DNA of 63,978 nt, the filler included, from Globobulimina sp. (Eukaryota): assembly GCA_003354225.1 (NCBI GenBank). It is 18 parts of 18 records of this genome, joined end to end, with 100 filler letters (N's around TTAATTAATTAA, not from the genome) between each part and the next. Parts side by side here need not be neighbours in the genome. Positions count along the whole stretch, not along the records: positions 53,409 to 56,865 come from PIVH01002745.1; 17 more parts are not named here. One strand, given 5' to 3'. The notes under the pieces are model-generated. The model was not told the DNA's origin and ran no database searches. It saw only the letters and a list, made by a program, of their open reading frames with translations. Shown one piece after another: positions 4,453 through 59,769 of the stretch (its first letter is position 1; each line of letters opens with the position of its first letter). The translations under genes and the position numbers were made by a program.

Positions 4453-4602
4453 TCTTCAAAAACTTTGCGGTTTGTCAAGGATATTATTGTCATATAATAG
4501 GACTGACATTGTTTGTTAAATAAATATTAGTAAATGTGCTAAAAAAAAGAAAAGAAATGAAATCCCACCCAAAAATAGTCATTGATTGATTGATTGATTG
4601 AT

Positions 4603-7014
4603 TTAAGAGCCGCACATAACACAATCGTCCTTATTGTCCAATGAGCACGACATGGCGACCAAATTCTTTTCTTTTTGTTGCTTTAATAATTTGTCTTGTT
4701 GGTCCTTTTCGAGGGCCTCCTGATCCACAGTGAATTTAATGGCATCCGTCGCCGCTTTGGTGCGCAAATAATACATTCCAGTTTTTAGTCCTTTCTTCCA
4801 TCCATAAAAATGCATCGAAGTCAATTTGCCAAAATTTGGATTTTGAATATGAATGTTAAAACTTTGCGACTGGCAAATAAATTGCCCGCGATCCGCCGCC
4901 ATATTAATCAAATTTTTCTGCGAGATCTCCCACACCGTTTTATAAATCGCGCGCAAATCCGACGGAATCTCATCTAACTGCTGCACGCTGCCATTATTTG
5001 CAATCAATTTGTCTTTCAACAAAGGAGTCCAAACGCCCAATTTGATCAAATCCCGCAATAAATGGTCATTAATGCACACAAACTCGCCCGCCAACGTACG
5101 GCGAACGTACACATTCGAAGTATACGGCTCAAAACACTCATTATTGCCCAATATCTGCGAGGTGGACGCCGTCGGCATCGGAGCAATCAATAAACTGTGC
5201 CGTACGCCATATTTCCCGATATCTGCCCGCAACGCATCCCAATCAAACAACTCCTCATTTAATGGCATCTGACTCTCCTTCTCTTCCTTTCTGAACTCGC
5301 GCCATAAATCGAACTGCAACTTTCCTTCACTGATCGGCGAGCCTTTGTACGTCGAATAGGCGCCGTCCACTTTGGCGATCTCCATCGACGCCGTCAATGC
5401 GCCGAAATAGATGGCTTCAAAGATCTCTTTATTTAATTTGCGGGCCTCTTCGCCATCAAATTCGAACCGTAATAGCATAAAAACGTCGGCCAAGCCTTGT
5501 ACACCGATACCAATGGGCCGATGTCGCATATTACTTACTTTCGCTTCCGGCACCGGATAAAAATTCACATCAATCACCTTATTCAAATTGCGAGTGATCA
5601 CTCCCGTGATTTCCACCAAGCGCTCAAAATCGAAGCTCTTCTCCGCCACATTGACGAATTTCGGCAAAGCGATCGACGCCAAATTGCAAACCGCCACTTC
5701 GTCCACGGAGGTATACTCAATAATTTCCGTGCACAAATTGGAGGATTTGATGGTGCCCAAGTTCTTCTGGTTCGACTTCTGATTACAAGCGTCCTTATAC
5801 ACCATATACGGAGTACCGGTCTCGATTTGTGACTGCAAAATGGCGGTCCATAACTCCCGCGCTTTAATCACTTTTTTATACCGCTTCTCCTCCTCATATT
5901 TCATAAACAACGCTTCAAATTTCTCGCCGTATAACTCATGTAATCCCTTGGCTTCATTCGGGCAAAATAGCGGCCAATTTGCGTCCGTCTCCACCCGCTT
6001 CATAAATAAATCCGGAATCCAGAGCCCGAAGAACAAATCCCGTGCACGGTCCTCTTCCTTGCCGGTGTTTTTGCGCAAGTCTAAGAAGCTGAAAATATCC
6101 GCATGCCACGGCTCCAAATACATAGCAAATGAGCCCTTCCTTTTCCCTCCGCCCTGGTCCACGTAACGCGCGGTGTTGTTGAAGACGCGCAACATCGGCA
6201 CGATGCCGTTGGACGTCCCGTTGGTGCCCTTGATGTACGAACCCATGCCGCGGACACAATGGATGGCCACGCCGATGCCGCCCGCATTTTTGCTGATTTG
6301 CGCACACTGTTTGAGCGTGTCATAGATGCCCTCGATGGAGTCGTCCTTCATCGTCAACAGAAAACAGGAGGAGAGCTGAGGGCGTTGCGTGCCGCCGTTG
6401 AACAGCGTAGGCGAAGCATGGGTGAACCACTTCAAACTCATCAAGTTATAGGTCTCGATGGCCGCGTCCAAGTCCTCGTGATGGATGCCCAACGATACCC
6501 TCATTAACATATGTTGCGGCCTCTCGGCGATCACGCCATTCAATTTCAGTAAGTACGATTTGGTCAACGTTTTGATGCCGAAATAATCGTAGCCGTAATC
6601 CCGGCCATACACGATGGCGCCGTTCAACTTCTCTTTGTTTTGCTGTACGATTTTGTAAACGCGATCGGATATTAAGGGGCCGGCTTCATTGCTGCGCGGA
6701 TTGATATAATTGTAGAGGTCGGAGATGACTTCGCTGAATACTTTTTTCGTGTTTTTTTGCAGATTGGAGACTTCGATGCGGGCCGCTAATAAGCCGTAAT
6801 CCGGATGCACGGTCACCATATGGGCAGAGGTTTGCGCCGCCAACTCATCCAATTCGGAGGTCGACACTCCAGAATATACGCCGACGCAGACTTTCCTGGC
6901 AACTGCGATTGGATCCACGTCGTGCGATAAACCCCAGGCTAATTTTTTAATTCGAGACGTGATTTTATCGAAATGGACGGGTTCTTTACGGCCATCGCGC
7001 TTTAACACATACAT
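4603..7014 (-). CDS. RRM1: Ribonucleoside-diphosphate reductase large subunit (class Ia, eukaryotic), intronless
   Basis: ATP-cone start [19 protein letters not shown]. Motifs [54 protein letters not shown] and C-terminal CxxC (CVMCGS). Confidence 0.98.
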
Positions 7015-7127
7015 TGTTTGTGGTGGANNNNNNNNNNNNNNNNNNNNNNNNNNNNNNNNNNNNNNNNNNNNTTAATTAATTAANNNNNNNNNNNNNNNNN
7101 NNNNNNNNNNNNNNNNNNNNNNNNNNN

Positions 7128-8023
7128 TGGATTATACGCAGGTGGAGCAGATGGAGGCGCTTCGTCATTATGATAACTTATATCTGAATGTGTTGATAAT
7201 GGTATTTGTTGAGGAGGCAATGCATGCGGATACTGCACAACATGTTGTATAGGTTGTGGGTGAGGTGGATGTTCAACCACTAATACTTCCCTACCATTAA
7301 TAATTGCTTTTTGTCCTTGCACAACCATTCGTTGTCCATTTGCACTCTGTATCAATACAGGTGTGGCTGTTGGTTGATGCATATTATGTGCATGACTTAA
7401 AGCAACTAATTCTGACTGGACCACTGGTTGTTGGATATATTGTGCATATAAAGGAGCGTTGTCCACAACTATACATTATATATAATATATACATTTATTG
7501 CATGCATACATATATATATAAACTGTACTTAACTCTGTGGAGCACCTTTTGTGACGCGAATAATTCCTCTGATCATTCTTGTTCTGCCTTTGCGGCCCAT
7601 GGTTATTAGCGGATAAATAATGGTGATGGAGAGTCGCGGATATTGAGCTTGCCACTCTTGTGTTTTTTGGCTTATTCTTTGTATCACGTTATTTCTCCAA
7701 TTTACTGCTGCTTTGTTGACTCCTTTACTCGAACAGCAGTAGCAATAACATTGCAAGCACACTAAGATTGCGCATCCGCCAATTCCTAAGTAACTCCATG
7801 ATCGATACTCTTCAAAATAGTTTAATACAACGATGAATATGGTTCCATAAATGATAGCAAGTGGTAGAAACATCCAACACGGCAATGAAAATATCATACA
7901 ACAACATAAAGACCAATAATATCTGCTGTATAATGAGGCATTGTATTTGTCGCCATTTCGAATTACATTTTCTATGGTTAAATAAATTTCATCTGCGATA
8001 TCTCGATGCATCTCATTTGACAT
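7128..8023 (-). CDS. Membrane protein with Cys-rich TM hairpin and Pro/Gln-rich PY tail; probably extends upstream to about 8258
   Basis: Two hydrophobic Cys-flanked segments. A GT-AG intron at about 7469-7532 joins ...APQ to IVDNAPLY.... Tail ends APPSAPPAYNP at the contig end. Confidence 0.55.
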
Positions 8024-8375
8024 TGGACCTTATACCATACCATATTGTAAACACATACAGACTGTTCCATAGAAAATAAGAAGTGAAACGTTTCTGGTTT
8101 GCCTGGTAGCACTTATTATTTTCGTTGAATGTCATATAATATTTTATACCTCGTTTTGTAGTTACTCTCGGAGTGTCGTTTGGTTTGAACATTTGAAATT
8201 CAAAATCCATGATCAGATTTGGTTGTTGAAAGTCTTGCTTTGAATACCCTGTACCCATGATTTCAGTTTTGGTTATGTTAAAGGCACTGTTTTTTTGATG
8301 AAAACCTGAACTCATAGCATTATGCCACTCATTGATGATTAAGATATAAGGCTATCAGCGAGAGTATTATGGATA

Positions 8376-9577
8376 ATGCTAGCCACTTTGAACTGTGCCA
8401 CATTAATTCTAACAATGATCAATTTGTATTCATTGCATCAAGGATTCAAAAACATGAAAGTCTATGATGTAGAACGTCGTCGTGTAATATGGTTTTATTA
8501 TGAAATAACATTGGTGCCATTGTTAGTGGCAGGGTGTGGTCATTACGGTGCTCAATATCCGAGACAGGCAATATGGATATTTCCGTCATTGCAAATATTT
8601 TTAGCATTCAATTTTGTTTGGTTTTTAGGAATGATGTATCAGTCCGCCGGCGGCTATGAAAATGTTAAATTTCATTTGTACCGTACACCGGACCGTTGTG
8701 GCTTTCCTCGCTTTGAAAAACTAATTTGTTGCCGCTGTTGCTTGAAAAAAAACCAATGGTTTGGAATGAAATCGAGATTATTCTATTTATACTTGATATA
8801 CGTGAAGCCACTGTGGGCCTTCTCATTGTCTGTAATGTCGACACTTAAATATGACTTCTCAGATTACAGTGATTATACGATGAGGTCACTAGTATTGATA
8901 TGTACAATAATTCCATTGAATGCTATCAAATGTTTTGTTGTTGCGATAGAACCAATATCGCGATTAACGAGAATACGACCAAAATTACAATTAATTCGAA
9001 TCATGGTTCCTTTGTTGCAGATACAACAACTAACAATCAGTTAAGATTAATAATATAATATGATATTAATATCCTTGCACTGTCACTCTGTTTGTTTGGT
9101 AATTGCTTAGCGTTCCTGGTCAATAATGAATATATTCCCGATTTGCAGGATGTGTCAAAGGAATATAGAGGCAGTCGATGGGAAGGGACCTTATTATCAT
9201 TTGAAATGTTAATCATTGCAATGGCATCGCATTTTGTTTACAGAGTGGAAGATTTTAAACATTGGGAACATCGACAACAATATCAATGGGACAGGCAGCC
9301 ACCGAGAAGGATTACAAATGATACGGATGACAATGATGTATTGCAGGAGTATCCATTCAGTGACTTATCGTCCGGCATATCTGCGTTATCTATGGGTGCG
9401 CTCTCCAGCGTAGTGGGGGGATATAAGAATAGGGATAATAAATCGGCATTGCTTCCAATGCCGGAAGACCATTCTTTGGAAGATCTTAGGCAAACACTGA
9501 TGGATCAAAACTCCGATAACGATGTAGCAAATGGCTCAACAAATTATAAATCTTTAGAGGAACTAACACGTAATTAA
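8376..9577 (+). CDS. Organic solute transporter OST-alpha/TMEM184-like membrane protein, spliced
   Basis: Multiple TM helices. C-terminal EGTLLSFEMLIIAMASHFVY resembles the family's last helix. Intron at about 9040-9110. Confidence 0.6.
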
Positions 9578-9750
9578 TAAATAAAGACATTTGTACATAG
9601 TGCGTATAGACCACGCTAGCTCCAATATTCAATTGTTATTTAAATTGTGTTTTCTGATCATCAATTATTATTCATTTGAGTCCGTTCAAAATAGGTGTTT
9701 TTTAGTATTAGAGTGTACATTCTGAGTTTTTCATCATAAGCAATTGCAAC

Positions 9751-10589
9751 ATGTCTTTTGATATTCAGTCAGATCAATTGCAGTTAGGAGTGTTACATGA
9801 TGTTGAATTAAAACAATCAGATACAGGTAAAATGTATGGATATTCTGCAAAATTAGAATTAACAAACAACGCATCGGTGACTGAATCAATAAACTCGCAC
9901 ATATTATTAAGTATTATGCAAACGATTAAAGATGCGACGTGTTTAGCCGATTTAAGGCAGATTATCATTGCACTCAATCCATTAAAACAACTGAAACAGT
10001 TATTATTGAATGAAGTGAATAAAATACGCAAAAACTATAAAAAAAAGAAGAGCAAAAATAATAAACTTTCATTATCCAGTTCCAGATTATCGTCCAACAC
10101 AACAACCAGACTCTCCTTAAACGAGTTATATTTTAAAATAACTGCAATGGACGAAATATTTGCAGACGACACCCTATGTTCGATAATATCATATGTGTCA
10201 GGTTCCAATATGTACAATAAAATACCGATAATAAATAAACATTTTAATTTTATAATGAAAAACTATCCATTATTGTTCCAGGATTACACCATGAAATTGC
10301 CATTGTACACAAGCAATGCATTAAATGTTTGTGTTTCTCACAAATTGCAATTAATTCACTTATCCGCCGATACTATGCATATTAAAAAAATTATTAAAAA
10401 CGACAAACATTGCTTACAATTTACAATAAAAAACATTCAAGAAATGCACAAATATTGTCCATTTATGTGGGATCAAATAAAGAAATGGCATTTCATAATA
10501 AAGCAACAGCAGTTACAGCACCAACAATTTCACCAACAATATGATAATAAATGGAAGCTATTAATACATCAAATAATTACACAGTCCTC
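9751..10589 (+). CDS. Hypothetical protein with F-box-like segment, partial
   Basis: MDEIFADDTLCSIISYV...IPIINKHFNFIM resembles a divergent F-box. Confidence 0.4.
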
Positions 10590-10689
10590 NNNNNNNNNNN
10601 NNNNNNNNNNNNNNNNNNNNNNNNNNNNNNNNNTTAATTAATTAANNNNNNNNNNNNNNNNNNNNNNNNNNNNNNNNNNNNNNNNNNNN

Positions 10690-11360
10690 ATATTCACGGA
10701 TATAATTTTAAAAACATTTTGATGGGTTTTATGTTTGCCAATATACCATCAATAAATAGTTTACATTCCATATTCATGACAATGGAAAGATGCTTAGTCT
10801 ATTCCGCATTAAATAAATTCAACAATTTACCATTAATTCCAATGTCATACCACCCAAATTTTAGTGCAAGAACAGAATATTTATTACAAAAGAAAATAAA
10901 ATATCCAAAAGTAATTAAAGTTGGGTCATGTCATAGTGGTTTCGGTAAATGTAGAGCTCGGACAAAAGATGAAATGGATGATATTAAATCAATTTTAATT
11001 TTAAATAAGGATTATTATTCAGAGGAACCACTCATTGCAATTGAATACGAATATAGAATACAAAAAATTGGCGACATAATACGTGTTTTTAAAAGAATAC
11101 CATCTGATAATTGGAAAACACATATTTCATCTTTTGTGGAAATGAAATTAACAAAGCAATACAGTGGATGGATTAATACTGCTTCCTCAATTTTTAAGGG
11201 TTTAGATATTTGTGCTTTGGATGTTGTAAAAGATAAAAACAATAATGATATTATATTAGAATTAAATGATACAGCAATTGGATTAATGGGCTCTTATGAA
11301 GTCGAGGATGAAAGTAATATTCGTGATCTAGTTGTAAATAAAATGAGCGTTGTGTTGTAA
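10690..11360 (+). CDS. Synapsin-like ATP-grasp protein, 5' partial
   Basis: Motifs ANIPSINSL, YPKVIKVGSCHSGFGK, YRIQKIG, NWKT, GLDICALD and IILELNDTAIGL match the synapsin C domain. Confidence 0.85.
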
Positions 11361-24834: not shown

Positions 24835-24934
24835 NNNNNNNNNNNNNNNNNNNNNNNNNNNNNNNNNNNNNNNNNNNNTTAATTAATTAANNNNNNNNNN
24901 NNNNNNNNNNNNNNNNNNNNNNNNNNNNNNNNNN

Positions 24935-26770
24935 ATCAGAACTCGTTGTTGCAAAGATCTCTGGAAATCGTATGTCAGACCATTGCAAAACGCTATGTAA
25001 CACTGGATTACAATTGATTGGTTGCGATTTGCTTGGCCATAAACTGCGCCCATACACAGTTGCATTTGGGACTTCCTGTGAGGTTGGTAAAATGCGAAAA
25101 ATGTTCATGAAAGCTTTATGATGTGACTTATTGCCAATTTTAATTGATTGTTGATATAGTGAAAGGAAACCTGTTGAGATTTTGGAATTCGAAGCCGAAC
25201 CTGGTGAACCGAAATCTGTTAAATCTGTAGTGGAATGATTGCTCGATTGTCCAAGCGCTGTGTGATTCTGGGTTGGTGCAGCAATAGCATCTCCATAGCT
25301 TAACATCAAAGCTAGCATTGTCAAGGCTGTACAGAGAACGGTAGTATCGATTTTTGGTACCAATGGTGTTGATTGAGTGGATTGATTTCGATTTATTTTC
25401 GATGTATGCCGTTTGTCTCTTGGCAGCCTTGGTGAAATATCAGCTTGAGTTTCTACAGGAGTTCCTATTTGCTGTTGAACCTGATCATCCACAATGGGAG
25501 CTGCTGTGAGTTGCAGTGAGTTGATTCTCAATGTTCCTATTGTAGGTTGTGGTGACAGACATTGTTGTAAGTTGGTATTTTCCTCTCGCAAGTATTTTAC
25601 TTCATCTGTCAAACTTTGAATTTCTGTCTTCAGTGCTGTCACAAGTTCGTTTTCTTCTGGTAAGTTGTTGTCTGGCTTCATAATGATTGTGTTTATGTGT
25701 GGTGATTGCTCTTGGTTTTCATCATCCTCAGAACATTCATTGTCAGATGGATCTTCATATTGTGAGTTGCGGATTCTAAGTCTGCATTCATTTTTCCAGT
25801 GACCCTGTTTGCCACAATAATGACAAGTAGTTCGTCTTTGTTCATCAATTCCCATATCTTTAAAGGATCTGTGTCCTTGATCATCTCCATAATAATTGTT
25901 GTAAGGTGCTGAATTCATTTGATCATTTGACATGAGCATTTCTTCCAACATTGATTCGATGCGAGCCAGTTTATTGTCAGTATCCTCATCTGTACTTGAA
26001 CCTTGGCCATGTTTGGAAGGTGTGTGTGCACGTTGAACTGCTGCTATCTTAGGTTGTGGATAGTCATTTGCATCGATCATTCTGTTTGCTTCCAGGCAGT
26101 TTGCTTTCGATAATGCTTCATCGAATGTTTGACATTCAAATGCTTGAACCCATTGTCGCAAACTTGGATGTAATTTGCTGGTGAAGTAAGTTAACAACAT
26201 GCCATTACGTTGTTCCTGTGAGAGTTCTGGGTGGGCCAATGTGACTAGTTTTTGAAGCTTTAATGCGAATGTTTGAACTGATTCGCTGTCACTTTGAAGG
26301 ATTACGGCAAGCTTTCCTTGAGCCCATCGCTTTTGTTCTGCAGGCTTTAGTGCATCTCTTAGTGCATTCTTCATTTGGCCATAGTCTGCTTTGACTTCTG
26401 CTGTTAGTTCTTTGTATTTTTGAAGAGCGGATTCTCGTAGATATGCAGGTAGCAATTTAGCTTTTCGTGCATTATCAAAATTGTATGCATTTGCAGTTAA
26501 TTCGAAAATTTCAACCCATGAATTGAAATCATCTGCTTTACGCCCATAAAACTTTGATACTAGGTCATCACCAGAGCCCATTGGACTTTGTGATGCTGCT
26601 TGAAACATGTTTATTTCTGCGTGTGTTTTATTTGATTGAACTCTATTTTGTAAGTCCACAATTGCTTGATTTACGTTTTCAGTACGTTTTTTATTAATTT
26701 GCTTAAGTTTTCCCACGTCTTCTACTAATGTAAGCAAGGTGTCTGCATCAATCTTGGTTTCTAGAGGCAT
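24935..26770 (-). CDS. gag: Gag (capsid + CCHC knuckle) fused to a coiled coil and a signal-peptide-led, possibly Env-like region; no protease or RT seen
   Basis: Motifs FNSWVEIFELTANAYNF...LPAYLRESALQKY, QSDSESVQTFALKLQKL and CHYCGKQGHWKNEC. Later hydrophobic segment LCTALTMLALMLSYGDAIAA. Confidence 0.8.
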
Positions 26771-26949
26771 TAACAGTGACAATTTATGTTGGTATAATAA
26801 CAAGATGTATAACTTAGAAGTTTATAGGTATGACCCTTTGTGTAACCAATTTCTTTTCCAATTATTAAAGTCAACCAAAGGACTATGGATTGGGGTGGAT
26901 CGTTACAGTATTTAAGAATCGGTTTATTTGGGACCTATCTTAAATGAAA

Positions 26950-26961
26950 TCGCTGCTACCA
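26950..26961 (-). promoter_or_regulatory. Primer-binding site complementary to the tRNA-iMet 3' end
   Basis: Minus strand reads ...AATACA|TGGTAGCAGCGA, complementary to ...UCGCUGCUACCA-3'. Confidence 0.85.
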
Positions 26962-27851
26962 TGTATTTATTGTATTGTATTGTAAGACTATAGACCGAGG
27001 GTAAGTCTAGTTTGTCTTGAGTCCGAGTAGGCACTCCATATACATACTACTATAATAAGAGTTCCTTTACTATACTACTAAACACAATACTTCCGTACAC
27101 TTCTAAATGCTTGAGGGGTTTGGGTTTGTAACGGTTTCCCGTAGTCTGTGCAAGATGTAGTAGTCTGTGGTTAGGAGGTGGTTAGGATGTGGTTAGGATG
27201 ACGTCGTATGAAGTCGGATGTGGTCGGATGCGGTCGACTGTAATAGGCTGGGCAGTACCTAATAATCTGAGTGGCCTGCTGTAGGCACTAGACATATATA
27301 GTAGTTACTGAATAGATGACCCTATGACAATATCAGTTATGAGGACTTACCATCTTGGCAAGGTGAACCAGTGAAACCAGAGGAGAACCAGGGAGTTAGG
27401 CTGAACCAGTGACAAACCAATAAACCTGAAGACTGAACCTGGGCTGAACCGAACGGAGAACCAGACCAATACTAAACTAAACTGAGGAGCTGGCTCATGC
27501 CTCTCCTTTTATCTACTGTCTAATCATTAAGGGTAAGGCACGATATGTTTTCATAGTGTCGCACGCAACAAGTCCAAACAAAGTGTTCTAAAGCCTAATT
27601 GAGAGTTGAGACAACCGAGCGTGACTGCATGGGTGAAGCTTCTATTCAATGCATCCTTCCATCTCATAATTTAGAACATGCAATAAATAACCCTAAATCA
27701 CAGGACTAAATACAGTAACCTATATAACATGATATAACTTTAAGCAAACAAGAAGACATTATAGTTAGTATTACATTAGATACAGGTGCTCAAAAGGTGT
27801 ACCATTTTATTACATTACATGCCGACCATCACAAGTATGTCGTCCGCGACA
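26962..27851 (-). repeat. Putative 5' LTR (about 890 bp)
   Basis: Minus strand begins TGTCGCGG (27851) and ends AATAAATACA (26962). Internal short tandem repeats (GTGGTTAGGA x3 near 27167-27198). The outer boundary is inferred because the second LTR is absent. Confidence 0.6.
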
Positions 27852-28039
27852 TACCAAACCAATAAGTAAATGCAATTAAATAAAAATGTAATAAAATGTA
27901 ATGGTGTACGTTTTTGTATTGATTTTTTTTTTTTTTGAAATATGTAATAAAATGTTTTTATTTTTTTTTAAAACTATTTTTGATTTCGAAATTTAGGTTA
28001 TGTTTAGATATGTAGTTATAGAAATAAATTAATAAAACA

Positions 28040-28180
28040 ATTAAACATACATGTAAGATCATCGGCTAAGCAGGATGTATAGCTTTTAGAAGCTCGGTTA
28101 GATGGACAGACAAACAGATATCAAACAATTTAACATACATGTAAGATATTTGGCAAAGCAGGATGTATAGCTTTAAGAAG
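28040..28180 (+). repeat. Imperfect direct repeat of about 54 bp
   Basis: AACATACATGTAAGAT...AAGCAGGATGTATAGCTTT occurs at about 28045-28087 and 28132-28175. Confidence 0.7.
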
Positions 28181-28494
28181 GAATACAGCCACAGTTGTGT
28201 ATGTATGTGCTTTCCTTTATACTTGCATGTAGCATGTGTATCGGGAATGCAGAAATGTTCCTGATGTACTGTGCTGAGATTGTATTCCTTTCCATAGCAG
28301 TAGACTTGCGGTATACGACAGTACAATGAAATGGCTTATGAACTATTTCACATTTATCTGCATCATTTATGTTATGTGCAGATATAAATGATTTNNNNNN
28401 NNNNNNNNNNNNNNNNNNNNNNNNNNNNNNNNNNNNNNTTAATTAATTAANNNNNNNNNNNNNNNNNNNNNNNNNNNNNNNNNNNNNNNNNNNN

Positions 28495-29117
28495 GTAAAG
28501 GTAGTATGAATATATCTCTGAATGCCTTGGCTGCTAATGTAACATCTATCTGTGACCGATATTCTATCGATCTGCGTGTAGCTTGGGTGCCACGCACATG
28601 TAATGCTGCTGCTGATTACTGTAGTCGCTGGCTTGATAGTAATGATTGGCATATTAATCCCAGCTTGTTTGCCTTACTTGATGCTAATTGGGGCCCACAT
28701 GAGGTTGACCGTTTTGCAAATACTTTTAACACTCAGTTGCCACGCTACAATTCGCGCTTTGCTTGCCCTGGCGCAGAAGCGGTCGATGCTTTCAATCAAG
28801 ATTGGTCTTTGACCCATAATTGGCTCGTGCCACCTCCTTTATTAATACCACGGACTGTCCGCAAATTAGTCACATCTCATTCTCGTGGCACTCTTGTTGT
28901 GCCCAAGTGGCCTAGTGCCATTTTCTGGCCATTACTTTTTCCTGATGGTCATCCTGCCTGGTTCATACGCGAAACATTGTCCTTTTCGCCAGGCTGGCGG
29001 TATGTAATACCCGGTAAAACTCAACATAATAGTCATTTTGGCTCCAAACAATTTATGCATGATTTACTTGCCCTGTCTATCGATGCTCGCTCTGCTAACT
29101 CCAAAAGTTTCACATAA
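28495..29117 (+). CDS. C-terminal part of DIRS pol: end of RNase H + Dam-like methyltransferase domain
   Basis: Motifs WVPRTCNAAADYCSR, WGPHEVDRFA, RYNSRF, AVDAFNQDW, NWLVPPP and GTLVVPKWPSAIFWPLL. Confidence 0.88.
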
Positions 29118-29452
29118 TCATAATATAATCAATAAAATATGTTTTCTTATATTTTACTTGTGTTCTTGCTAATAGCGTAATAGAGTGACTAAACGGTTTA
29201 TGCCGTAATGCAATGAAGGTATAATGACCGTTTTGTCACGGCATGTAGCGGTCAGCGTTGATTGGTTATAGCTCCGCGGTAGGCGGAGCTTGCTTGTTAC
29301 TGAACGGCCTGCTCTTTGTAGCTTCATTCACGAGTCGTTCCCTTCTAGCTCGGCCGTCGAGCAATCATCTTTTCCTGCTATTTCTCAATCGTGTTCCCTA
29401 TATATTGCTTAGTTGCTATTTGGAGACTGTTTTCTTGTTTCTATCTATCAAA

Positions 29453-30250
29453 ATGACTGAAGAACAACCAGTAACCGTCACTGCTCAATCCAATAAAGTT
29501 GCTATTGACAACATGTCACTTTCGTTGTCCCGTATTGAAGCTTTACTCTCTCAACAACAACAACGTCCTGTCGTCGCTCAGCCAGTTGAAGTTGTTGAAG
29601 AATCGGACGAACCGCCTAGCAAGAAAGCTAAATTAGTATTTGATGATATTTTGGCGGAGACTTGGTCCACTAAACCATCCGATGCTGCTCTAAAATTATT
29701 GGGCAATCAAAAGAGATATGGTGTTATGTGGTCTTTTCGCAATTTGGTTACCGATTTAGAAGACACTTGCAGTGGTGATCCAGCTTCTATTGACATTTCT
29801 GTCGTTCAAGGTCTTTTGGTTACTCTCAAAACTGAAATGGCCGACCACATGCGTCTTATCCGTATAGCTGATCGCTCTAAAGGTGGCTGGTTGACTGTAG
29901 ATAATTATCAAAATGATGTTTTGGCCCGTGGTAGAGAAGATGAACGCCGTTTGTCTCAAGCTGAACGTACTGCTGTACGTACCATTTCCGATAAGAAACC
30001 TAAACGACCATTTGTTTCTAATTCGTCGTCTGTTGCTCGACCCTTATTTGGTGGTCCCACTGTGCCCTTTCACGGTAGCGCCGGTCAGCGTGCCGCTGGC
30101 CCATCCCACTATGGTGGTTCCCGACGTTCCTTTTCCGGTCCGAGTGTCGACCGACCTTGTCACAGTTGTGGAGCCCCTGACCACTGGTATGGTGTCACAT
30201 GTCCCAATTACTCCAGCGGTGGACGATATTATGGTGCCAAAAAGCAATAA
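29453..30250 (+). CDS. DIRS/PAT-type Gag-like ORF1 with Zn knuckle
   Basis: RLIRIADRSKGGWLTVDNY...EDERRL..AE block typical of PAT-like ORF1, plus CHSCGAPDHWYGVTC. Confidence 0.8.
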   Translation: MTEEQPVTVTAQSNKVAIDNMSLSLSRIEALLSQQQQRPVVAQPVEVVEESDEPPSKKAKLVFDDILAETWSTKPSDAALKLLGNQKRYGVMWSFRNLVTDLEDTCSGDPASIDISVVQGLLVTLKTEMADHMRLIRIADRSKGGWLTVDNYQNDVLARGREDERRLSQAERTAVRTISDKKPKRPFVSNSSSVARPLFGGPTVPFHGSAGQRAAGPSHYGGSRRSFSGPSVDRPCHSCGAPDHWYGVTCPNYSSGGRYYGAKKQ

Positions 30251-31954
30251 TTTGAACTTGAATTCTAATTCTGTTGTTGATAGTGTACTTAAAAGTGAGT
30301 CATCTGTTTCTCGACCAGTATTTAATCCATTATTTTTGTCACAACCAACTTTTGCTGCATGGCTTTTTGATAATTGGCCTTCACTAGAGTTTTACGGTAT
30401 TAAGGGTTCTCTTAAGGAGCATTTAAATGCCTGGATTCGTATCAGGGCCCCACCTTTTGTCTTAGATGTTATTTCTAATGGATACCGTATCCCTTTTCAT
30501 ACTTTTCCGACTTCTTTTTGTCGGCCTAATAATCGATCTTTTCATGATAATTGGGAGTTTGGTATGATGGCGATTGGGCGTTTATTTAAGAACGGTTTTG
30601 CCTGTCTTGTGTCTGAACGTCCCTTAATTGTCAGTCCTTTGCAAGTGGCAATACAACCTAATGGTAAAAAGCGATTAATACTAGATCTTTCCTATGTAAA
30701 TCGTTTCATTTTTAAGCAACATTTCAAAATGGAAGACTTGCGTGTAGCTATGCCTTTTTTTGCTCAGGGTGGTTTTGGTTTTACATTTGATATGACGCAA
30801 GGTTATAATCATGTTAATGTACACCCAGAATTTCAAAAGTATCTGGGTTTCTCCTTCGATTGGGGATCTATCACTTATTATGGTGTCTATACGACTGTAC
30901 CGTTCGGTCTTTCACCTGCTCCATGGCTTTTTACAAAATTATTAAAACCTTGGGTTCGATTTTGGCGTGAGGCCGGTAGTATTGTTTTTGTTTACATCGA
31001 TGATGGTGTGGGTTTTCACTCTACTCGTGCAGGGTGTCAATCTCTCTCGGACCGTGTCTGTTCTGACTTAACCAGTGCTGGCTGGGTTATTAATGAAGCC
31101 AAATCGTTTTGGCGGCCTTCATTTGTTGTCTCATGGCTTGGGTTCACTTTGGATTTTAACCACTTTACAATTAATATACCTGCTGACAAAGTGTCAGCCT
31201 TAATTACTTTAATTCGGACTGAATTGCATTCCAGACATATAACTGCTCGTCAATTATTACGTATTGCTGGCAAATTGGGTTCTTTATCCCTTGTTTATGG
31301 ACCTAAGGCTTTAATCCATGCTAAACCTTTTTATGCACTGGCTGATGCCATTACTTCTGCTGGGAATAGTTATGACTATTTTGCTCCAATCTCATCCCAG
31401 GTTAAAGAATGTTTACGTTTTTGGGCTAAATTTTTACCCCTTGCGAAACACTGTCGTTCCATGACTCATGAGGAACCAGATGTTATCGTTTCATCTGATG
31501 CTAGCGCCTCTGGTGGCGCCACGATTGTGCATTTTTTGCAGTCTGGTGCTATATCACGCCTTTCTGATCATGTAGCCCTTTGTGCTCGGGACCGTGTTTC
31601 CCGTCAAAATCGGCGTTTTTTCGATCCAGGACATACCGATATTGTTCTGTCTCAGCCTGATAAGCCGGGGGTCGGTAACTTGCAAGCCTCTGAGGCTCTT
31701 TCTTGCTCTAGTGAGCTGCCTACGCTTGTGGCGACTGAGGGACCATCTCAAGTGCATTCCAGTGGCTTTTGCCCCGCCAACGTGGCTGTTATTAATTGGC
31801 TTCCTCATGAAGCAACAGACAGCTCTACATGGCGCGAGTTGCGCACTGTCGATTTTGGTCTAATGACCTTCCCTGAAATGTTAAGTAATCATACAGTACT
31901 TTGGCTTTGTGATAATCAAGCTGTTTGTAGCATACTTCGTAAAGGTAGTATGAA
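29913..31954 (+). CDS. DIRS pol: reverse transcriptase + RNase H, overlapping gag in the +1 frame and continuing at 28511
   Basis: Motifs KKRLILDLSYVN, FDMTQGYNHV, PFGLSPAPWLFTK, VYIDDG and WLGF. RNase H motifs SDAS, SSTWREL and CDNQ. Confidence 0.93.
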
Positions 31955-32054
31955 NNNNNNNNNNNNNNNNNNNNNNNNNNNNNNNNNNNNNNNNNNNNTT
32001 AATTAATTAANNNNNNNNNNNNNNNNNNNNNNNNNNNNNNNNNNNNNNNNNNNN

Positions 32055-51312: not shown

Positions 51313-53563
51313 TGATGTGATACTATTATATACAAAAAAAAAGGCAATCAAATTATAAAATAGATATTGGTTTTATATTTTAATTTGGATTCTATTTCTC
51401 TGAGAATAAAAGAATTTTTGTTATATATAATATAGATGTCCAGATTGAATATATGTAGAATTAATTAATATTTGCTTGTCTTTCTGTTATAAAAGTATTT
51501 ATTGTTATTACATTTTGTTTATATATTTATTGTGTTTGTGCACAAATGCAAGCATTCAAAATAAAATGAGAGTTGTATTTGTGCTTTTCTTTATATTGCG
51601 TTTTATTGCTATGTTATTGTTATTTTTGTAACGATAACAACGATTTATGTTTCTTTTTTATTATTTTTTTGGTCCAATCTTTTTGTTTTGTATTTTCGAG
51701 GCCTCCTATAAAAGCTGTATTACTTTTAATTATATTATCAATACACGCGGTGTGCATGATATCTGTTCCGACAACAGAAACACTCCGAAAAGCTAATAAT
51801 GTCAAAATTGTTCCCACTCTTTATCGTGCTATCTGTTTTTGTTTATATAGGATGCAGTGATTCCAAACACAAAATGGAGGACTAGAGGAGATGGATATAA
51901 TCCACGATCTCAATTTAAACTTCAAAAAAAAACCTCAAAACCAACAACCTCACTATCGACCATCCTCTTTTGACTTCGCCAAATTCGTCACCCATTTTAT
52001 CACACATTGTCGTCGCATTAGAACCGCCACCCATTTTATTCATTTGTCATCGCATTAGAATCACCACCAACATCAGTCACTAAACCAAAGCGACATTTAT
52101 TGGATGTATAAAAAAGTCAACAAAATGATAGATATTATTCCTATTATTTATACGCGTTGACTCACTAGCTAGCCCACCTAGGAAAATAGATATTTATTAT
52201 TATTTCGATTATTAGTATAGGATAGTATTAGTATAGGTACGAGACAGTGAATTTGAGGGATCCCTTCAGCAATTGAGAACATGGATTTCTATTATGTCTA
52301 AGTTTTTAGAGAATTAACATCAAGGATTTTTATTTCAACGCTACATATGTCCAAAAGACATTCAGATGATCCCAGTGATCAACCATCAAAAAAAAAACAA
52401 TGATGAATTTTTTGTGAAAGGAACATCACCTACATTATCATTTAGAGAGAGTGAGCAAAATTACAAAGTAGAACATTTAGAGAGATTTAAATACATCAGT
52501 TGCGCCATTGTTTAATATGGTACCAATTGGACCTCATCCATGTGGTTCATATGAAGTATGGACCCCATCGCAGTATTTTCATGAGGTTATAAGTTGGTTT
52601 ATGATGGTTTATGATCCATTATAGAGAATTACAAGTGTGATATAATTATAATGCACAATCTCAATATGCTCAAAACATAACTAGTACTGTCAATAATTGC
52701 ATTTGTAAAGCTTTTCATAAAAAATTAATCCATTAAAACAATATGATATACAGTTTCTTGAGATAAAATAAGATTGGGTTTCATCAATAATTTCGGGACT
52801 AGCACCAATACTTCCTTTTGTTTTTCGTTGTTGAATATTTAAAAAAACGGACAAGGGATTAACTGAAAAGGCCGATAGATTTGGCAGGTAAAAGTGATTG
52901 GATTTTGTTGTGGATGATTGGTTCTACAGCATCACATTGTTATAGCGCGTTTGAGCAAAAGGGCTCATTGTGACATGCTGTAGCTTAGAAATCAACAAAC
53001 ATCAAACATAACGAGTAAATGGCTGCGTTTGAAAAGAAAAGAAAGATATGTTTATTTTTATGTTTGTATTCATTTTCACATTTAACAAGAATAAATAAGA
53101 TGTGTTGAAAGGTTGATTATTTGGGATGGGATAATATGTGAAGAATTAAATGAAATTATGGGGATTTGGATTAAATTAACAACATAGATTCGTTTGACAC
53201 AATGGAAAAGGGAGAATATAGATTGGTGCGTGAGATTGCCACAGATTGGTTTATGAGAAAATAGATTGGGAGGCCAATTTGTGAGAACTTGTTTGCAAGG
53301 CTTCTTATNNNNNNNNNNNNNNNNNNNNNNNNNNNNNNNNNNNNNNNNNNNNTTAATTAATTAANNNNNNNNNNNNNNNNNNNNNNNNNNNNNNNNNNNN
53401 NNNNNNNNCCAATCAGCTGCCATGTTACGATGCTATTACAAATTAAAAATACCTCACTGTAAAACATTTTTTTGCTATCAAGGGAAATGAACGTTGGTTG
53501 AAAAAATTTGAAGAATTAAGGTACATATATTTTAAACTGTTATCAGATGTTGATATTATTGCA

Positions 53564-53638
53564 ACAAATGGGATTAGAATGGAATCCAGACACTATATGT
53601 TACAATTAACATATTTGTATCCTTCATTTTCCCATTGT
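53564..53638 (-). promoter_or_regulatory. Putative SECIS element in the 3' UTR
   Basis: Minus strand AATGGGA-AA-ATGA-A-GGATAC-AA-ATATGTTA-ATTG-TAACATAT-A-GTGTCT-G-GA-T-TCCATTCTAA-TCCCATT. This gives helix I, an asymmetric internal loop, a UGAN/NGAN core and a long upper stem. Placement of the apical adenosines is non-standard. Confidence 0.65.
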
Positions 53639-53729
53639 ATGCAATCAATCATGACCAATAGACATAAAAATGCTGGCAGTCAAGTCAGATGAACAAATGC
53701 AGAAAATGGGTATTTCGGTGATATGCAAG

Positions 53730-54638
53730 TCACAGTTTAGATAATTGTTGATGTGGTAAATCGATTAAATTTCCTAAATCCAATTTGTTGAATAAATAAT
53801 CCAAATGTTGCAATTTATTAAAATCACATTTTACCATTCCATCAATTCCCATTTTAGTCTGTAAATATTTTTTTAATTTGTTATTCTTATTACATGCATT
53901 AACAAAGATATTTTGCAATTGATTTATTTTAAAATTATGTGATTTTAGGAATTGTTTTGTGACCACAATAAGTGGCGCATGATATGGACCTAAAATCTCG
54001 TCCTTTAACACTCGGAAATTGAATTGTTGTGATTTTAAAGTTGATAATAATACATTAACATCAATGGCAGCAATATCAGCTAAACCATTTGCAACTAATT
54101 TCATTGAATTTGTGTGACTTTGAGACATAATTATTTTTTTAAAAGGACATTTATTTTGATCCAATAAATTATTTTGTGATAACCATATTTTAATAGAATT
54201 ATAACCAGATAATGATAAAATATCATTGCAGGCTAATACTAATTTCTTATTTCCACTATTTTTAATATCAAAAACGTTCCTAATCCAATTTGAAGATGTT
54301 ATCCATACGGAATAGTAAATTGGTTCATTTATAACATTTATTGCTTTGTTAACTTGCCATTGACTGTGAAATGGATCATCAATCATTGATGATGAAACTA
54401 ATGGAATCAAGTTCGATTTGCATCGGATATATGTTGGAGATCAAATACGCATAAAATCAATTTTTTTATTATTTTTTATAAATGTTTCGTTTTGCGCACG
54501 GGTTGGACCAGATTGTGTTGGAAATACACTTGGAATCACTTTTATATCTATATTCATCATATTTGACACTTCATAAATAAGTGGTTGCAACGCATCATAC
54601 TCTTCAACGACAGTTATAAAGTCCATAAATGAAGACAT
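53730..54638 (-). CDS. PhnD/phosphonate-binding-type periplasmic-binding-fold protein with in-frame UGA (candidate selenocysteine) at 54441-54443
   Basis: ORFs 54441-54638 and 53730-54410 are in the same frame, separated only by TGA (IDFMRI-UGA-SPTYI). Motifs PIYYS, LACNDILSLSGY, SHTNSMKLVANGLADIAAID and LGPYHAPLIV. Confidence 0.75.
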
Positions 54639-54736
54639 TACGATTCAAATTGTCAGACTAGAAAACAAAAAATTAAAATTAAGCGCGATATTGAAAATCA
54701 CGGTATTTATTGACATACTGCAGCGAGTTGAATTTA

Positions 54737-55936
54737 TTACAATACTTTCAATTTAACATCATCAGAATATCCAAATCTCCATTTATTTCGTTCAAATAAT
54801 GCAATAACTTCCTGCATATACCACTTATGGCATTTATCAATCTGTTCTTGAGTTGGATCCTGATCCTGATTATCAATTTTGTTTTGAACACAGTCAGAAT
54901 ACATATTCGCACTAAAAATAGTATGTAAACCAATATCACTCCGCGGTAAAAATGGACTGTACCAATATGGACCAATCGGAAACACAGTCGGTACCTTTTT
55001 CTGATTTAACCATTGTTTCAATTTCCCAATCCATGAATTGGTGCTTGTGGCAAATATATTTTTATAACTCTCACATTCCCCAAATACATAACTGGGCCAT
55101 AATTCATACCCATATTTTAAACAATATTTAATAAATCCTTTCCTTTGTTTGATATAAATTACATTCTCACCATAGCTAAATAAGGTTGCTTCATTAATTC
55201 CGCCCGGCAAAAGTCCAAAAGATACTCCTTTGCTCATCAGCGATTTCATAGAGTTATTATCTGCCGGCAGTACGCAGCCAGTTAACTTTGTAAAAAAGAA
55301 ATTAAAAATGGGTGCTTTACATAAATAAGCAACAGCAAAGCCTGGCTTTGGTATCTTATATTTCATGCTTTCATATGCAGTGATATCTTGTCAGCAAATT
55401 CAAAATGAGTATTTTTATCAGTCACATCCTCCAATGCACGGAATCTCATACCGCAACACAACAAAAAGCCTAAACAAAATATGCCGTGCGGATGGACAGC
55501 GGCTAATATCGGTTGGTGCAAATTACGTTTTTTTGGCTCAGCTTCTACGATTTGCGTACAGCCGCCATCAAAATAAGCAGAGCCAAATCTGATGTATAAC
55601 CTACAAATCCATGGCTGGGGGCGGATGGGAATGAAGTATGGTAATAATATTATAGAGGACAAGATGAGCGCGGTTGTGCTATAATTGGTATAAAATAAGA
55701 ATATAATAAAAAACGGCATGACAAATCCTCCGATCCTTTAATTTGTTTTTTTATTTCAAACATTTGAACAATACAAAGTAATTATAAATGGAATAAAAGT
55801 ACCATGAATAAAGCAATAGCAAAAAAAAGATGCTTCCGCCCATTTTGTTGCACCAATTTTTACCGTGACCCATCCTTGCGACAGACCATAAACCAGAAAA
55901 ATCTGGATTTAGCAAAGAGAGTTTGTCGGTTGACAT
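54737..55936 (-). CDS. DGAT2/MOGAT-family acyltransferase, spliced, one-base frameshift near 55388
   Basis: Motifs HPHG, GLLPGGINEA, RKGFIKYCLKYG, PSYVFGE and HKWYMQEVIALFERNK. N-terminal TM region and an intron at about 55738-55802. Confidence 0.85.
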
Positions 55937-56245
55937 TGAATAACAATTCCAGTGTTTTTCTGCTCGGAGTTTAAGCGATTTTTATGAGAAAATGTCGTCT
56001 GAATCCTTCAATATTCTTCACCCTCCAAATTCTGAATCCTTAATTCAATATTATTACTGACTTGTGATAACCTCCAAATAGCATCGTGTTTTTAGAAATA
56101 CTATTTTGATGAAAAAATCGTTCTGATGAGTCCTATCAAACAACGCATTGATAGAAACAAATTATTTTGACAAAAGCATATATTATAAATTCCGTCAAAA
56201 ACAAAAATTTATGGAGCAAACAGTCACAATCTGATACTCTATGTA

Positions 56246-56865
56246 TCATGCATTGTTTCCATAAAATCTCCAGCATCCAATTGAAATATTAATATGGCTT
56301 TGGCTCCAACGACCACCCACGATTCGCATTGCGCAAGTTTCAATATTTACATCAAGCGTTCTAATTTCATTTTGTTTTAAATCGGTAAATATTTTCCAAT
56401 TTAACCAATTTCCGTCATCTCCTTTATATTGAATCTGACGATTATTAATATACGGTACATCTGGAATAATTTCTGAAACATTCTGTTTCGTATCATCACT
56501 GTGCATCACATCTAATCCAGCAATATCCATTCGAAAAATATTTACTTTATTATTAAATTCAACCGCAACATATTCAAATCCCATTTTGTTATTACGTAGG
56601 TTCGATGTGGCAACTCCCTCATTTACGTTGTTATTTGTTAATGCCTCATAACTATTCAATGTTCCATCATATTTACTGCTCATTTTTAAAATATATTGAA
56701 GGCATTGAGCATTCTTATATGTTACGGCATTCTTATATGCTTCAAGCTGGTCTCGTAATTCTTGATTTTCTCGTTGTAATAATGTATATCGTTTATTATG
56801 CGCATAATCCACTTTTACTCTTTGTTCTGTACTGAATGCAAAACGAACCTCCGAAGTAGGATTCA
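56246..56865 (-). CDS. Hypothetical protein: coiled coil + discoidin/galactose-binding-like beta domain, 5' partial
   Basis: Pattern GVAT...YVAVEF...IQY...W..W...AMRI...IGCWRFYG. Confidence 0.4.
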
Positions 56866-56965
56866 NNNNNNNNNNNNNNNNNNNNNNNNNNNNNNNNNNN
56901 NNNNNNNNNTTAATTAATTAANNNNNNNNNNNNNNNNNNNNNNNNNNNNNNNNNNNNNNNNNNNN

Positions 56966-57682: not shown

Positions 57683-59641
57683 TCAGTCATTTTTTCTTTG
57701 TGTTCTTTGCTTTTTTTGAATCAAGGATTTTAATGCATAATTTGACACTAAATTCTTATGTGATAATTTTAAGCCAGTATTTGGTGAAATATCATTACTT
57801 TTAAGCCAATCTTGAATAGCACACCGTTCATAGGTCGCACCATCTGCAATAATTACCGGATCGACCATTATTTCCATTGTTATCGGACAATAAAATTCAG
57901 CATTATCCAAATCACCATTACATTTATCATCCAATCTCTGTTTCTTTGTTGGCGGTTCCAATTTTCTATCATCATCATCACTTAATTTACGTTTTCGTGA
58001 GTTGTTATTATTTGCATTATTTGAATTATTATTATTATTATCATATTTGCTCTCATCTGCTTCATCCAACGCAATATTAAATTGTATTCCATCTTGCTGT
58101 GCTACAAATTTTAATGTTTTTAATTCATTTATTAATGTCGGATCATAACAATTTGTCATTTCCAACACAAATTTATCAATAAATTCATCAAACCGATAAC
58201 TGCCATAACTCTCAAACAATTCCATCTGTTCTTTATTTGGGTTCATTGTTTTTCTTAATTTAACATAATCATTCACAAAATCTGTATATTTTATCAATAA
58301 AACAGCCTTTCGAATTCCTACATTCTCAAATATCTCATTCTTAGCCAATGTACCCATATCTTTTTCGAAATAATTCCTCTGTGTAATACCATTCATGTCA
58401 TCCCATTCAACTTTAATTTTAAGCAAATTATCTTTAAATCCGCTTTTTAATTTAAATAACAATAAACCAGATCGAATATCATTTTTATCATTACAATGTG
58501 ATGCAAAACATGTTATTTGTTTCGCACTTTTCGCATTCTCCAAATTATTGATTTCTGGACTCCCAAATCCTTTATCAATATAATGATCGCTGACAATGGT
58601 TAATGTTGCATTAAATGCAACCGATGTAACCATAAAATCGAATTCCTGATTGACAATCTCTGCAAAATCATCAGCATTCATAATATTACAATAATTACAT
58701 CCCATGGAACTTGATACATTTTCAATTACTTCGCCGCCTAAATCCAAGCCAATGCCAGCAACACTCGTAAATACATTATCGTGTAAGCTATGGTCATGCA
58801 CCAATTTACTAAATTCTTTGCCATCCGAATCAGTCACAAGCATATCTGTTAAAAACCATATTCTTTTATTTGTCGCATTCTCCTTTAAACCGGATAACAG
58901 TTCAAAAGCTTTGTTATATGCCGGCGTTATAGCAGTGCCACCATTTCCTTTCAATTTATTTATTGCGCCAATTAATTCTTCTTTTTTGCTTTTGGTATCG
59001 GCCCATTTTTGAATATCATGGAGTACAGAGACGGTGTCATTAAATACAATAAAACCAAAATAATCATTGTCATGAATTTGTTCTAAGAATAGAGATAACA
59101 CTTTCTTTGCTACAGTTATTCGAGAATCTAAATTTTTTTTCATATTATAATTAAAATTGGTATCATCAACATCGAAGCCAAAACTCATACTGCCGGAAAT
59201 ATCCAATACAAAAACAAATTGCAAATTAGGTCGTTTGTGTTTATCCATTCCTTTAAGTCCATCATATTTAGAGGCACCATGCCATCCAAACCAATATTCA
59301 TCTGATTTTTGTTCATAATCAAATGTTTTTGCAATGGTTATATTTGATTCATACATTTTATCAATTTCAGGTTGCTTGTTTTCATCTTTTGCTTGGCTGA
59401 AACTAAAATAATGCGCATATAGACTTGATTCATATGTTATGTTGTAATTGTAATTCATTACAGTAACATCATTATTTTCTTCTGGTTCATCATCTAAACA
59501 CACAGTACCCGGTTTATAATGATGGGGTTTTTTGACCCCACCCATTGATGGTGCAGATTTTCTCGCTGCTTTGGTTGCTAATTGTTTCCTCGGAGCTGCG
59601 CCTCCTGAACTTTTTCTAGCTGTTTGCCGTGTTCGTGCCAT
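57683..59641 (-). CDS. Histone H3 N-tail (residues 1-48) fused to a vWA domain and a C-terminal U-box
   Basis: N-terminus [49 protein letters not shown]. vWA MIDAS motifs [12 protein letters not shown] and FLTD. U-box [31 protein letters not shown]...SPNT...[11 protein letters not shown]. One uninterrupted ORF. Confidence 0.9.
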
Positions 59642-59769
59642 TCGTTTCAAATTGGTTGACGGACTTGACTTGACTGTTGACACTGAAGAATGAGGAGATG
59701 TAGGAAGTGGAAGAAAGTTTTTAAAAGTGTATTTTATATATTTATTTTATTGTGAATTAATAATTAATT

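Follow-up and report, generated by a model that had tools for sequence, protein, structure and literature searches.

The locus described here encodes, on the minus strand, a protein related to PhnD and AioX, the reading frame of which is interrupted by a single in-frame TGA that may specify selenocysteine (Sec). It is located in a stretch of 63,978 nucleotides (nt) from Globobulimina sp. (assembly GCA_003354225.1), which consists of 18 joined parts and is referred to as the window; the gene itself falls within PIVH01002745.1 (positions 53,409-56,865). The elements of the gene and its flank, including a hairpin resembling a Sec insertion sequence (SECIS), are as follows:

53730..54638, minus strand: coding sequence (CDS) for the PhnD/AioX-like protein, with 302 codons, UGA-66 among them, and then the terminal TGA; readable without any intron
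54441..54443, minus strand: in-frame TGA at codon 66, candidate Sec codon, in the column of the invariant pocket cysteine (Cys), which is that of AioX Cys106
54398..54448, minus strand: GT..AG segment of 51 nt, encoding R-I-U-S-P-T-Y-I-R-C-K-S-N-L-I-P-L, rejected as an intron
53733..53741, minus strand: codons for Ser-Lys-Leu (SKL), a tripeptide of the peroxisomal targeting signal 1 (PTS1) type, from the read-through translation and the C-termini of relatives
53730..53732, minus strand: true terminator, also TGA, about 103 nt upstream of the AUGA of the hairpin
53558..53645, minus strand: SECIS-like kink-turn hairpin in the 3' untranslated region (UTR), from folding, motif scan and core consensus
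53342..53409, no strand: joint between contigs (N...TTAATTAATTAA...N), which limits the known 3' flank of the gene to 320 nt

According to an initial annotation of this DNA, one minus-strand frame is broken only by the TGA at 54441-54443, and translation confirms this. From the ATG (54638-54636) 65 open codons run up to the TGA (54443-54441; ...KKIDFMRI*SPTYIRCKSNLIPLV...), after which another 236 open codons end with ...LSKL and the TGA at 53732-53730. The product obtained by reading through the UGA, named P0001, counts 302 residues. The gene has a GC content of 27% and shows no second defect in 301 codons, while elsewhere in it 162 single-base routes to a nonsense codon exist, spread over 116 other codons (163 routes including UGA-66). 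TGA is a normal stop in this genome and the genetic code is not reassigned, since TGA ends 13 of the 34 frames in the window with 200 or more codons (TAA 21, TAG 0), this gene among them, directly after the conserved SKL.

The initial annotation had proposed to align the read-through protein to its homologues and to look for Cys at the position of the UGA, and the outcome is uniform. A HMMER search of 1.84 billion representatives yielded 44 proteins at E <= 1e-3, and 28 were aligned with P0001: the UGA column holds Cys in all 27 homologues with a residue there, the remaining one being N-terminally short and thus gapped. In prokaryotes, scanned with one genome for each species, 80 bacterial loci were found (spanning Rubrobacteraceae, Planctomycetota, Acidobacteriota, other Actinomycetota, Chloroflexota and Myxococcota), and here Cys occupies the column in 80/80. 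The motif D-x-x-F-x-C-x-x-x-Y with Cys at the UGA, named in the initial annotation, indeed is the consensus of the bacterial relatives. Along the alignment S142, G145, H175 and S178 are invariant like the UGA column, and Y108, S144, D188 and D193 are conserved in at least 90%.

The closest full-length relative (P0003) is identical to residues 39-302 of the read-through product in 128/270 positions (47%, E 2e-80). Its FMRICSPTY stands opposite FMRI-U-SPTY in an alignment that is unbroken across the UGA, which shows homology on both sides of this codon. A fragment (P0009) matches the N-terminal residues 3-53 with 67% identity. The closest named relatives are two EukProt proteins of the foraminifer Bolivina argentea (P0002 and P0006; EP01084 P007586 and P007587; 70% identity), and both of their open reading frames (ORFs) begin at the equivalent of Met85, the first Met after the UGA. 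These starts are the expected output of an ORF caller if a stop stands upstream, which is suggestive and no proof of a conserved UGA. A search for homologue fragments terminating at the UGA gave only P0006, and a metagenome scan with a six-sequence profile of foraminifer type produced 550 pattern matches and no relatives. Three bacterial matches with an internal TGA (G005, G381 and G639) were considered as Sec forms and discarded, as their alignments overrun an ordinary terminator.

The assignment of the protein to the PhnD/Phosphonate-bd family holds: Pfam PF12974 matches residues 105-271 of P0001 with 34.8 bits (cut-off 27), and P0001 stays under every NCBIfam cut-off (TIGR01098 31.9 vs 112, PhnD 25.8 vs 261, TIGR04553 16.4 vs 250). 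The AlphaFold model of the read-through protein is a single complete domain (pLDDT 90.5, pTM 0.89) with its first strand beginning at residue 2, in agreement with the earlier statement that a signal peptide is absent. Foldseek ranks AioX and ArrX on top (6esk: E 8.6e-17, TM 0.69/0.78), PhnD and PtxB also being fold matches in the PDB. A profile of 29 sequences (A1) likewise finds ArrX (6x6b, E 1.2e-57) and AioX (6esk, 6esv and 8ed5, about 1e-52), with PhnD (2e-28) and PtxB well behind; the six-sequence foraminifer-type profile (A2) is weaker and gives the same order (AioX 1.5e-5, ArrX 1.2e-4, a PhnD1 2.7e-4).

In the profile alignment the UGA column coincides with the Cys of ArrX 'DLAFICTYSF' and of AioX 'AAWICGYPF'. 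As reported by Badilla et al. (2018, PMC5908839), arsenite in AioX is linked to the Cys106 sulphur, PhnD has Gly65 at this site, and the AioX pocket consists of Y88, C106, Y131, S161, S163, H192 and D210. The equivalents of C106, Y131, S161, S163, H192 and D210 in the profile alignment are U66, Y108, S142, S144, H175 and D193. The initial guess of a metalloid or oxyanion ligand thereby gains strength, as AioX and ArrX, the closest structures, are sensors of arsenite and arsenate and their arsenite-bonding Cys106 shares its column with the UGA. In a tree of 29 rows the foraminifer-type (94/92), bacterial leaderless CxPxY (94/93) and signal-peptide (97/98) groups are on separate branches with an unsettled deep order, and a grouping of P0001 inside the AioX/ArrX/ArxX sensor clade was not recovered. 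Judged by its sequence, the product is a PhnD-superfamily protein of an uncurated clade near AioX/ArrX, yet not an AioX, because it has no leader and carries the motif C/U-x-P-x-Y.

The hairpin in the 3' UTR is located 94-163 nt beyond the stop and about 815 nt from UGA-66. Its parts, described in base pairs (bp), are:

53645-53630 / 53573-53558, minus strand: extended helix I, up to 15 bp
53636-53630 with 53573-53567, minus strand: core pairing of helix I, AAUGGGA with UCCCAUU, or else with UUCCAUU at 53584-53578
53627-53623 and 53587-53584, minus strand: hairpin core, AUGAA and GGAU, with 37 nt from AUGA to GA
53622-53617 / 53593-53588, minus strand: helix II, 6 bp, GGAUAC/GUGUCU
53616-53615, minus strand: AA of the AA(A) bulge
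53614-53595, minus strand: mini-stem, 8 bp, AUAUGUUA/UAACAUAU, with loop AUUG at 53606-53603

Helix I, the AUGA...GA core with 37 nt between its halves and the 6+8 bp upper stem are thus as initially described. The fold of 106 nt has a minimum free energy (MFE) of -26.5 kcal/mol (z = -2.29), with 3/200 shuffles being equally good. We scanned both strands of the whole window for ATGAN, a helix II of at least 6 bp abutting the core, KGAW and a helix I of at least 6 bp, and found two sites against a mean of 0.7 in 30 dinucleotide shuffles (about 125 kb). Because of this count, the chance of meeting the motif in this 320-nt flank and on the correct strand is estimated at well under 1-2%, allowing for thresholds set post hoc. 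The AUGAA/GGAU core agrees with the SECIS core consensus UGAN/KGAW (as stated in PMC3753652), and long mini-stems are described in SECIS elements of Ostreococcus, Chlamydomonas and Dictyostelium (PMC2375036). With type II SECIS (RF00031, NTGA_AA_GA) the hairpin shares its 3'-UTR site, helix I, internal loop, quartet, helix II, AA(A) bulge, mini-stem and 4-nt loop. What had been called a SECIS-like hairpin thus has the core, helix I, bulge and mini-stem of one, though neither the canonical spacing nor an Rfam match; we regard this kink-turn hairpin as the likeliest SECIS of the gene, putative and type-II-like.

Other candidates were set aside. The second motif site (3990-4026, plus strand) lies antisense in a sirtuin-like frame (3778-4455, minus strand) with an MFE z of -2.2 and was judged a chance hit. 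A scan with the canonical pattern gave 27 hits that were left unused, ungapped pairing being too crude, and the single one located downstream of the gene (52718-52670) has a fold that shuffled sequences equal (z +0.89) and lies beyond the contig joint. The hairpin itself was rejected as a C/D snoRNA: it shows weak matches only (snoR120 19.2 bits vs 55), which we ascribe to the shared kink-turn, and lacks RUGAUGA or CUGA boxes. Rfam, run over the whole window, reported no family at gathering score.

Raw reads with TGT, TGC or TGG at codon 66 had been named as evidence that would speak against Sec; two contigs assembled from public runs instead show TGA. The first (X1, 54225-54633, depth 8.4) is identical to the window and the second (X2, 54311-54481, depth 2.6) keeps the TGA as well; both are of low depth and from one sample, possibly the source of the assembly itself. 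Inside the CDS four differences between runs and window were found (one of the four sites resting on depth 2.6), each at the third base of its codon: three are silent, and the fourth, K167N, introduces the residue of the Bolivina orthologue. A contig from another study (X3) covers 53530-54221, with the hairpin inside and the TGA outside this range, and a presumed RNA run (X6) gave only short repeat-like pieces that continue into unlike sequence.

Taken together, we moderately favour the reading that UGA-66 encodes Sec and that the gene is a selenoprotein of a new family. Sec in place of Cys at a functional Cys, together with a SECIS in the 3' UTR, is the standard eukaryotic signature, and therefore the mechanism would be an ordinary one. 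Rhizaria can decode Sec: a rhizarian alga, Bigelowiella natans, is reported to have 23 selenoprotein genes (PMC7539508). As we infer it, UGA-66 would be read as Sec by the SECIS-dependent eukaryotic machinery, with termination at the next in-frame UGA, after -SKL. The 3'-UTR hairpin would serve as a type-II-like SECIS, its helix II being short and its mini-stem long. The product would be a soluble two-lobed 'Venus flytrap' protein without signal peptide, the cleft of which keeps the oxyanion-binding residues of AioX (Tyr108, Ser142, Ser144, His175 and Asp193). Here the selenol of Sec66 would take the place of the AioX thiol that bonds arsenite, and, with a soft oxyanion or a small molecule containing sulphur (S), selenium (Se) or arsenic (As) bound, may ligate or attack its central atom. 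The protein could then act as a tight binder or as a redox catalyst.

Several observations weigh against this reading. Counted from NTGA, an unpaired AA follows after 7 nt (in the bulge) or 16 nt (in the loop), outside the canonical NTGA-(10-13 nt)-AA (spacing as given in PMC2375036). Helix II consists of 6 Watson-Crick/GU pairs and the quartet, while helix 2 of human SECIS elements has 14-15 bp (PMC2761289); measured by the canonical spacing it is about 3-5 bp short, in which it departs from type II SECIS. The Rfam SECIS models gave no match at E <= 10 with queries of 391 nt and 131 nt. The thresholds of our motif scan were fixed only after the candidate hairpin had been seen, and the true SECIS could lie beyond the contig end. 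The TGA is without independent DNA support, as X1 and X2 represent a single low-depth sample. Among the bacterial relatives no Sec form was seen in two samples of 401 genomes (85 and 91 genomes with matches; one tally includes the unpublished genome G031, on which no claim depends), and our literature search found nothing on selenoproteins in Foraminifera or Reticulomyxa. A search for tRNA genes in the window found none. It is because of the off-specification hairpin and the low-depth, single-sample DNA support that our preference for Sec goes no further than stated.

The strongest alternative, which we nevertheless consider unlikely, is that of a fresh loss-of-function allele or young pseudogene, in which a change from TGY to TGA leaves only the first 65 residues of the protein and the hairpin is a coincidence. 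A fragmentary, low-depth assembly with linker-joined contigs would fit such an event, as would a hairpin that is off-specification for a SECIS. Nonetheless, among the 163 single-base nonsense routes the mutation would have struck the sole invariant pocket Cys, with no second defect in the 301 codons of a gene of 27% GC and with all four variant sites at third codon positions. Moreover, a K-turn hairpin with an exact SECIS core would be present by accident in a 3' flank of 320 nt, given a shuffle rate of about 0.7 per 125 kb.

Less probable still is an error in base calling or assembly, the real codon being TGT or TGC in an ordinary Cys protein. Every other family member seen is the Cys form, and the depth at the codon is only 8.4 and 2.6 in runs of one sample that maybe is the source of the assembly. 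The error, however, has to hit exactly the third base of this codon and yield A, whereas two separately assembled runs give TGA with no alternative letter listed there; it also leaves the hairpin and the Bolivina ORFs starting at Met85 unexplained. We find it very improbable that UGA-66 is decoded without Sec-tRNA, either by near-cognate read-through (Cys, Trp or Arg) or by a lineage-specific code: Cys at the UGA would give back the family residue, but TGA ends 13/34 long frames including this gene after SKL, and a sense TGA would carry the product beyond its PTS1 into non-homologous sequence.

Finally, the caveat in the initial annotation that the segment 54398-54448 is an intron removing the TGA in frame can be given hardly any credence: the segment exists, is in frame, has GT..AG ends and a length divisible by three, and comes close in size to a verified intron of this genome (37900-37958, 59 nt, GTACGT..TAG, in an aldo-keto-reductase-like gene), so that size alone cannot exclude splicing, but it encodes a conserved homologous core and homology therefore excludes it. 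Splicing would cost the protein 17 residues of the N-lobe block with the highest conservation (R-[IVM]-C-S-P-x-Y ... [IL]-[IV]-P-L), present in all close relatives; P0003 aligns unbroken through the segment (FMRICSPTY...IPLV) and all other relatives do likewise. In the AlphaFold model these residues close strand 60-65, make up helix 69-73 and open strand 77-85, and the donor GTATTT is unlike GTACGT.

Returning to the Sec reading, the C-terminus of the product points to a location in the cell. A C-terminal tripeptide of the SKL type is the PTS1 signal for peroxisomal import, and of the five relatives whose C-terminus is complete, four end in SKL (P0003 and P0004) or AKL (P0007 and P0008). Going by this sequence signal, the C-terminal SKL probably directs the product into peroxisomes. 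Another relative of foraminifer type (P0005) has a hydrophobic tail (...SKKLIVLCIFCIIFSIIVSYVIL) in place of SKL/AKL, which looks like a tail anchor and not like a PTS1. Given the SKL end, the pocket residues that are kept and a selenol at the As(III) site of AioX, we propose that the protein may be a peroxisomal holder of a soft oxyanion or of an S/Se/As-containing molecule, which it would ligate or reduce via Sec66.

The bacterial members of the family provide further context. For 44 of the 80 loci full flanks are available, and in nine of these a sulfoxide or selenoxide synthase of the EgtB/SenA type is found within 4.5 kb (L036, L042, L050, L054, L060 and L069, at about 5920-8200; L002 and L031, at 6000-10400; and L039). 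In six of the nine, mostly Planctomycetota, the synthase follows directly on the same strand, and in the four with ORF coordinates listed (L036, L042, L060 and L069) its frame abuts or overlaps that of the family gene. Three of the nine synthases were annotated by NCBIfam, the others being assigned by BLAST clustering. Those of L069 and L036 are EgtB (536 and 565 bits, cut-off 360), whereas the neighbours in L002 (Rubrobacteraceae) are SenA (520 vs 420), SenB (417 vs 300) and SelD (323 vs 125 bits), together a full selenoneine cluster; by sequence clustering L031 (Rubrobacter) has the same neighbours. The family members next to these genes have the invariant Cys in C-x-P-x-Y/F, are leaderless and reach no NCBIfam cut-off.

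When compared to known systems, the best matches in both profile and fold are AioX, ArrX and ArxX (PDB 6esk, 6esv, 6eu7 and 6x6b; as described in PMC5908839). Like AioX, P0001 has a pocket with Cys/Sec, Tyr, Ser-x-Ser, His and Asp, the candidate Sec standing at the column of the arsenite-bonding Cys106. Unlike these periplasmic sensors it lacks a signal peptide and its C-terminus is a PTS1; being eukaryotic, it has no XSR two-component partner, its gene adjoining a DGAT-like gene. The motif is C/U-x-P-x-Y here and C-T-Y-S-F or C-G-Y-P-F in ArrX/AioX, and the bacterial CxPxY relatives are also leaderless, unlike AioX sensors. The binding proteins of phosphonate, phosphite and hypophosphite ATP-binding cassette (ABC) transporters (PhnD, PtxB and HtxB, PF12974) belong to the same superfamily and fold, and share the oxyanion loop S-x-S-G and the His with P0001. 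They differ in that the gene of P0001 has neither transporter genes nor an export signal, and PhnD has its reported Gly65 where the family of P0001 has Cys/Sec.

The initial annotation considered the fold new among selenoproteins. This stands for the PhnD/AioX type: a term search found no such selenoprotein in the accessible parts of a 2026 review table of prokaryotic selenoproteins or of an algal survey, and the texts searched contain no eukaryotic case. It does not stand for the substrate-binding fold at large, given the bacterial selenoproteins SaoB and SaoX, which are described as having an ABC substrate-binding fold with Sec or Cys in the ligand cleft as well (10.1101/2022.07.06.499078; PMC13188914). 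For this residue a role in ligating metals or metalloids is proposed (Haft et al. preprint; PMC13188914). SaoB and SaoX belong, according to the Haft preprint, to other families of substrate-binding proteins, related to PDB 4NMY/2X26 and 3VVE/4ZV2, and their NCBIfam models (NF040727 and NF040735) gave no match to P0001 at E <= 1. They are also described as bacterial, exported or lipoproteins, with a SECIS inside the ORF, whereas P0001 is leaderless and eukaryotic with a candidate in the 3' UTR.

A further relative in the PhnD superfamily is TIGR04553, 'putative selenate ABC transporter substrate-binding protein', which has been described close to sen (selenoneine) clusters (10.1101/2022.04.13.486033; PMC13674229 Table 1); published surveys mention a 'putative selenate transporter' (ABC_peri_selen) near clusters of the selenoneine type. 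The bacterial members of the P0001 family likewise occur beside SenA-SenB-SelD or EgtB. Still, the family scores 16-31 bits with the TIGR04553 model against a cut-off of 250 (relatives 17-31), and differs from it in having no signal peptide and no adjacent transporter genes.

Some other features of the window may be mentioned. The next gene upstream of the PhnD-like gene (54737-55737, minus strand) encodes a diacylglycerol acyltransferase of the DGAT2 type (PF03982, E 4e-23) and ends about 95 nt before the PhnD-like ATG. Contigs in the window are linked through N-runs that enclose TTAATTAATTAA, which provides stops in all six frames (for example at 53342-53409, about 56870-56960 and about 10600-10690), and adjacent segments may not adjoin in the genome. 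The frame at 57683-59746 (minus strand) starts with a histone-H3-like N-terminal tail followed by vWA and U-box domains (Pfam VWA_2 and U-box), an odd fusion. A GC-richer block (24887-32006, about 0.38-0.42 vs about 0.30) contains gag-like, zinc-knuckle and reverse-transcriptase/RNase H-like frames on both strands and is probably made up of retrotransposon remains.

If the Sec reading holds, what is new is the family, the lineage and possibly the SECIS geometry. We give about an even chance to the full combination: the first selenoprotein with a PhnD/AioX fold, the first Sec decoding in Foraminifera, a SECIS with a short helix II, a selenol at the arsenite site, targeting to peroxisomes and an unrecognised family of S/Se/As handlers. 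Confirmation would add one more family to the eukaryotic selenoproteins and would extend the use of Sec to Foraminifera. The SECIS would be a variant with a helix II about one third of a turn under the accepted rule, meaning that a functional SECIS tolerates a helix II shorter than search tools permit and that current selenoproteome surveys would overlook genes of this kind. For the widespread, uncurated clade of leaderless PhnD-like proteins, the finding would offer a functional handle: the upgrade of an invariant Cys to Sec usually is a sign of redox or very tight chalcogen/metalloid chemistry, and the EgtB/SenA neighbourhoods in bacteria make the proposed chemistry directly testable. Given the operon partnership with EgtB and the SenA-SenB-SelD neighbours in bacteria, bacteria and protists would share in this family an unrecognised (seleno)thiol-based handler of S, Se and As compounds.

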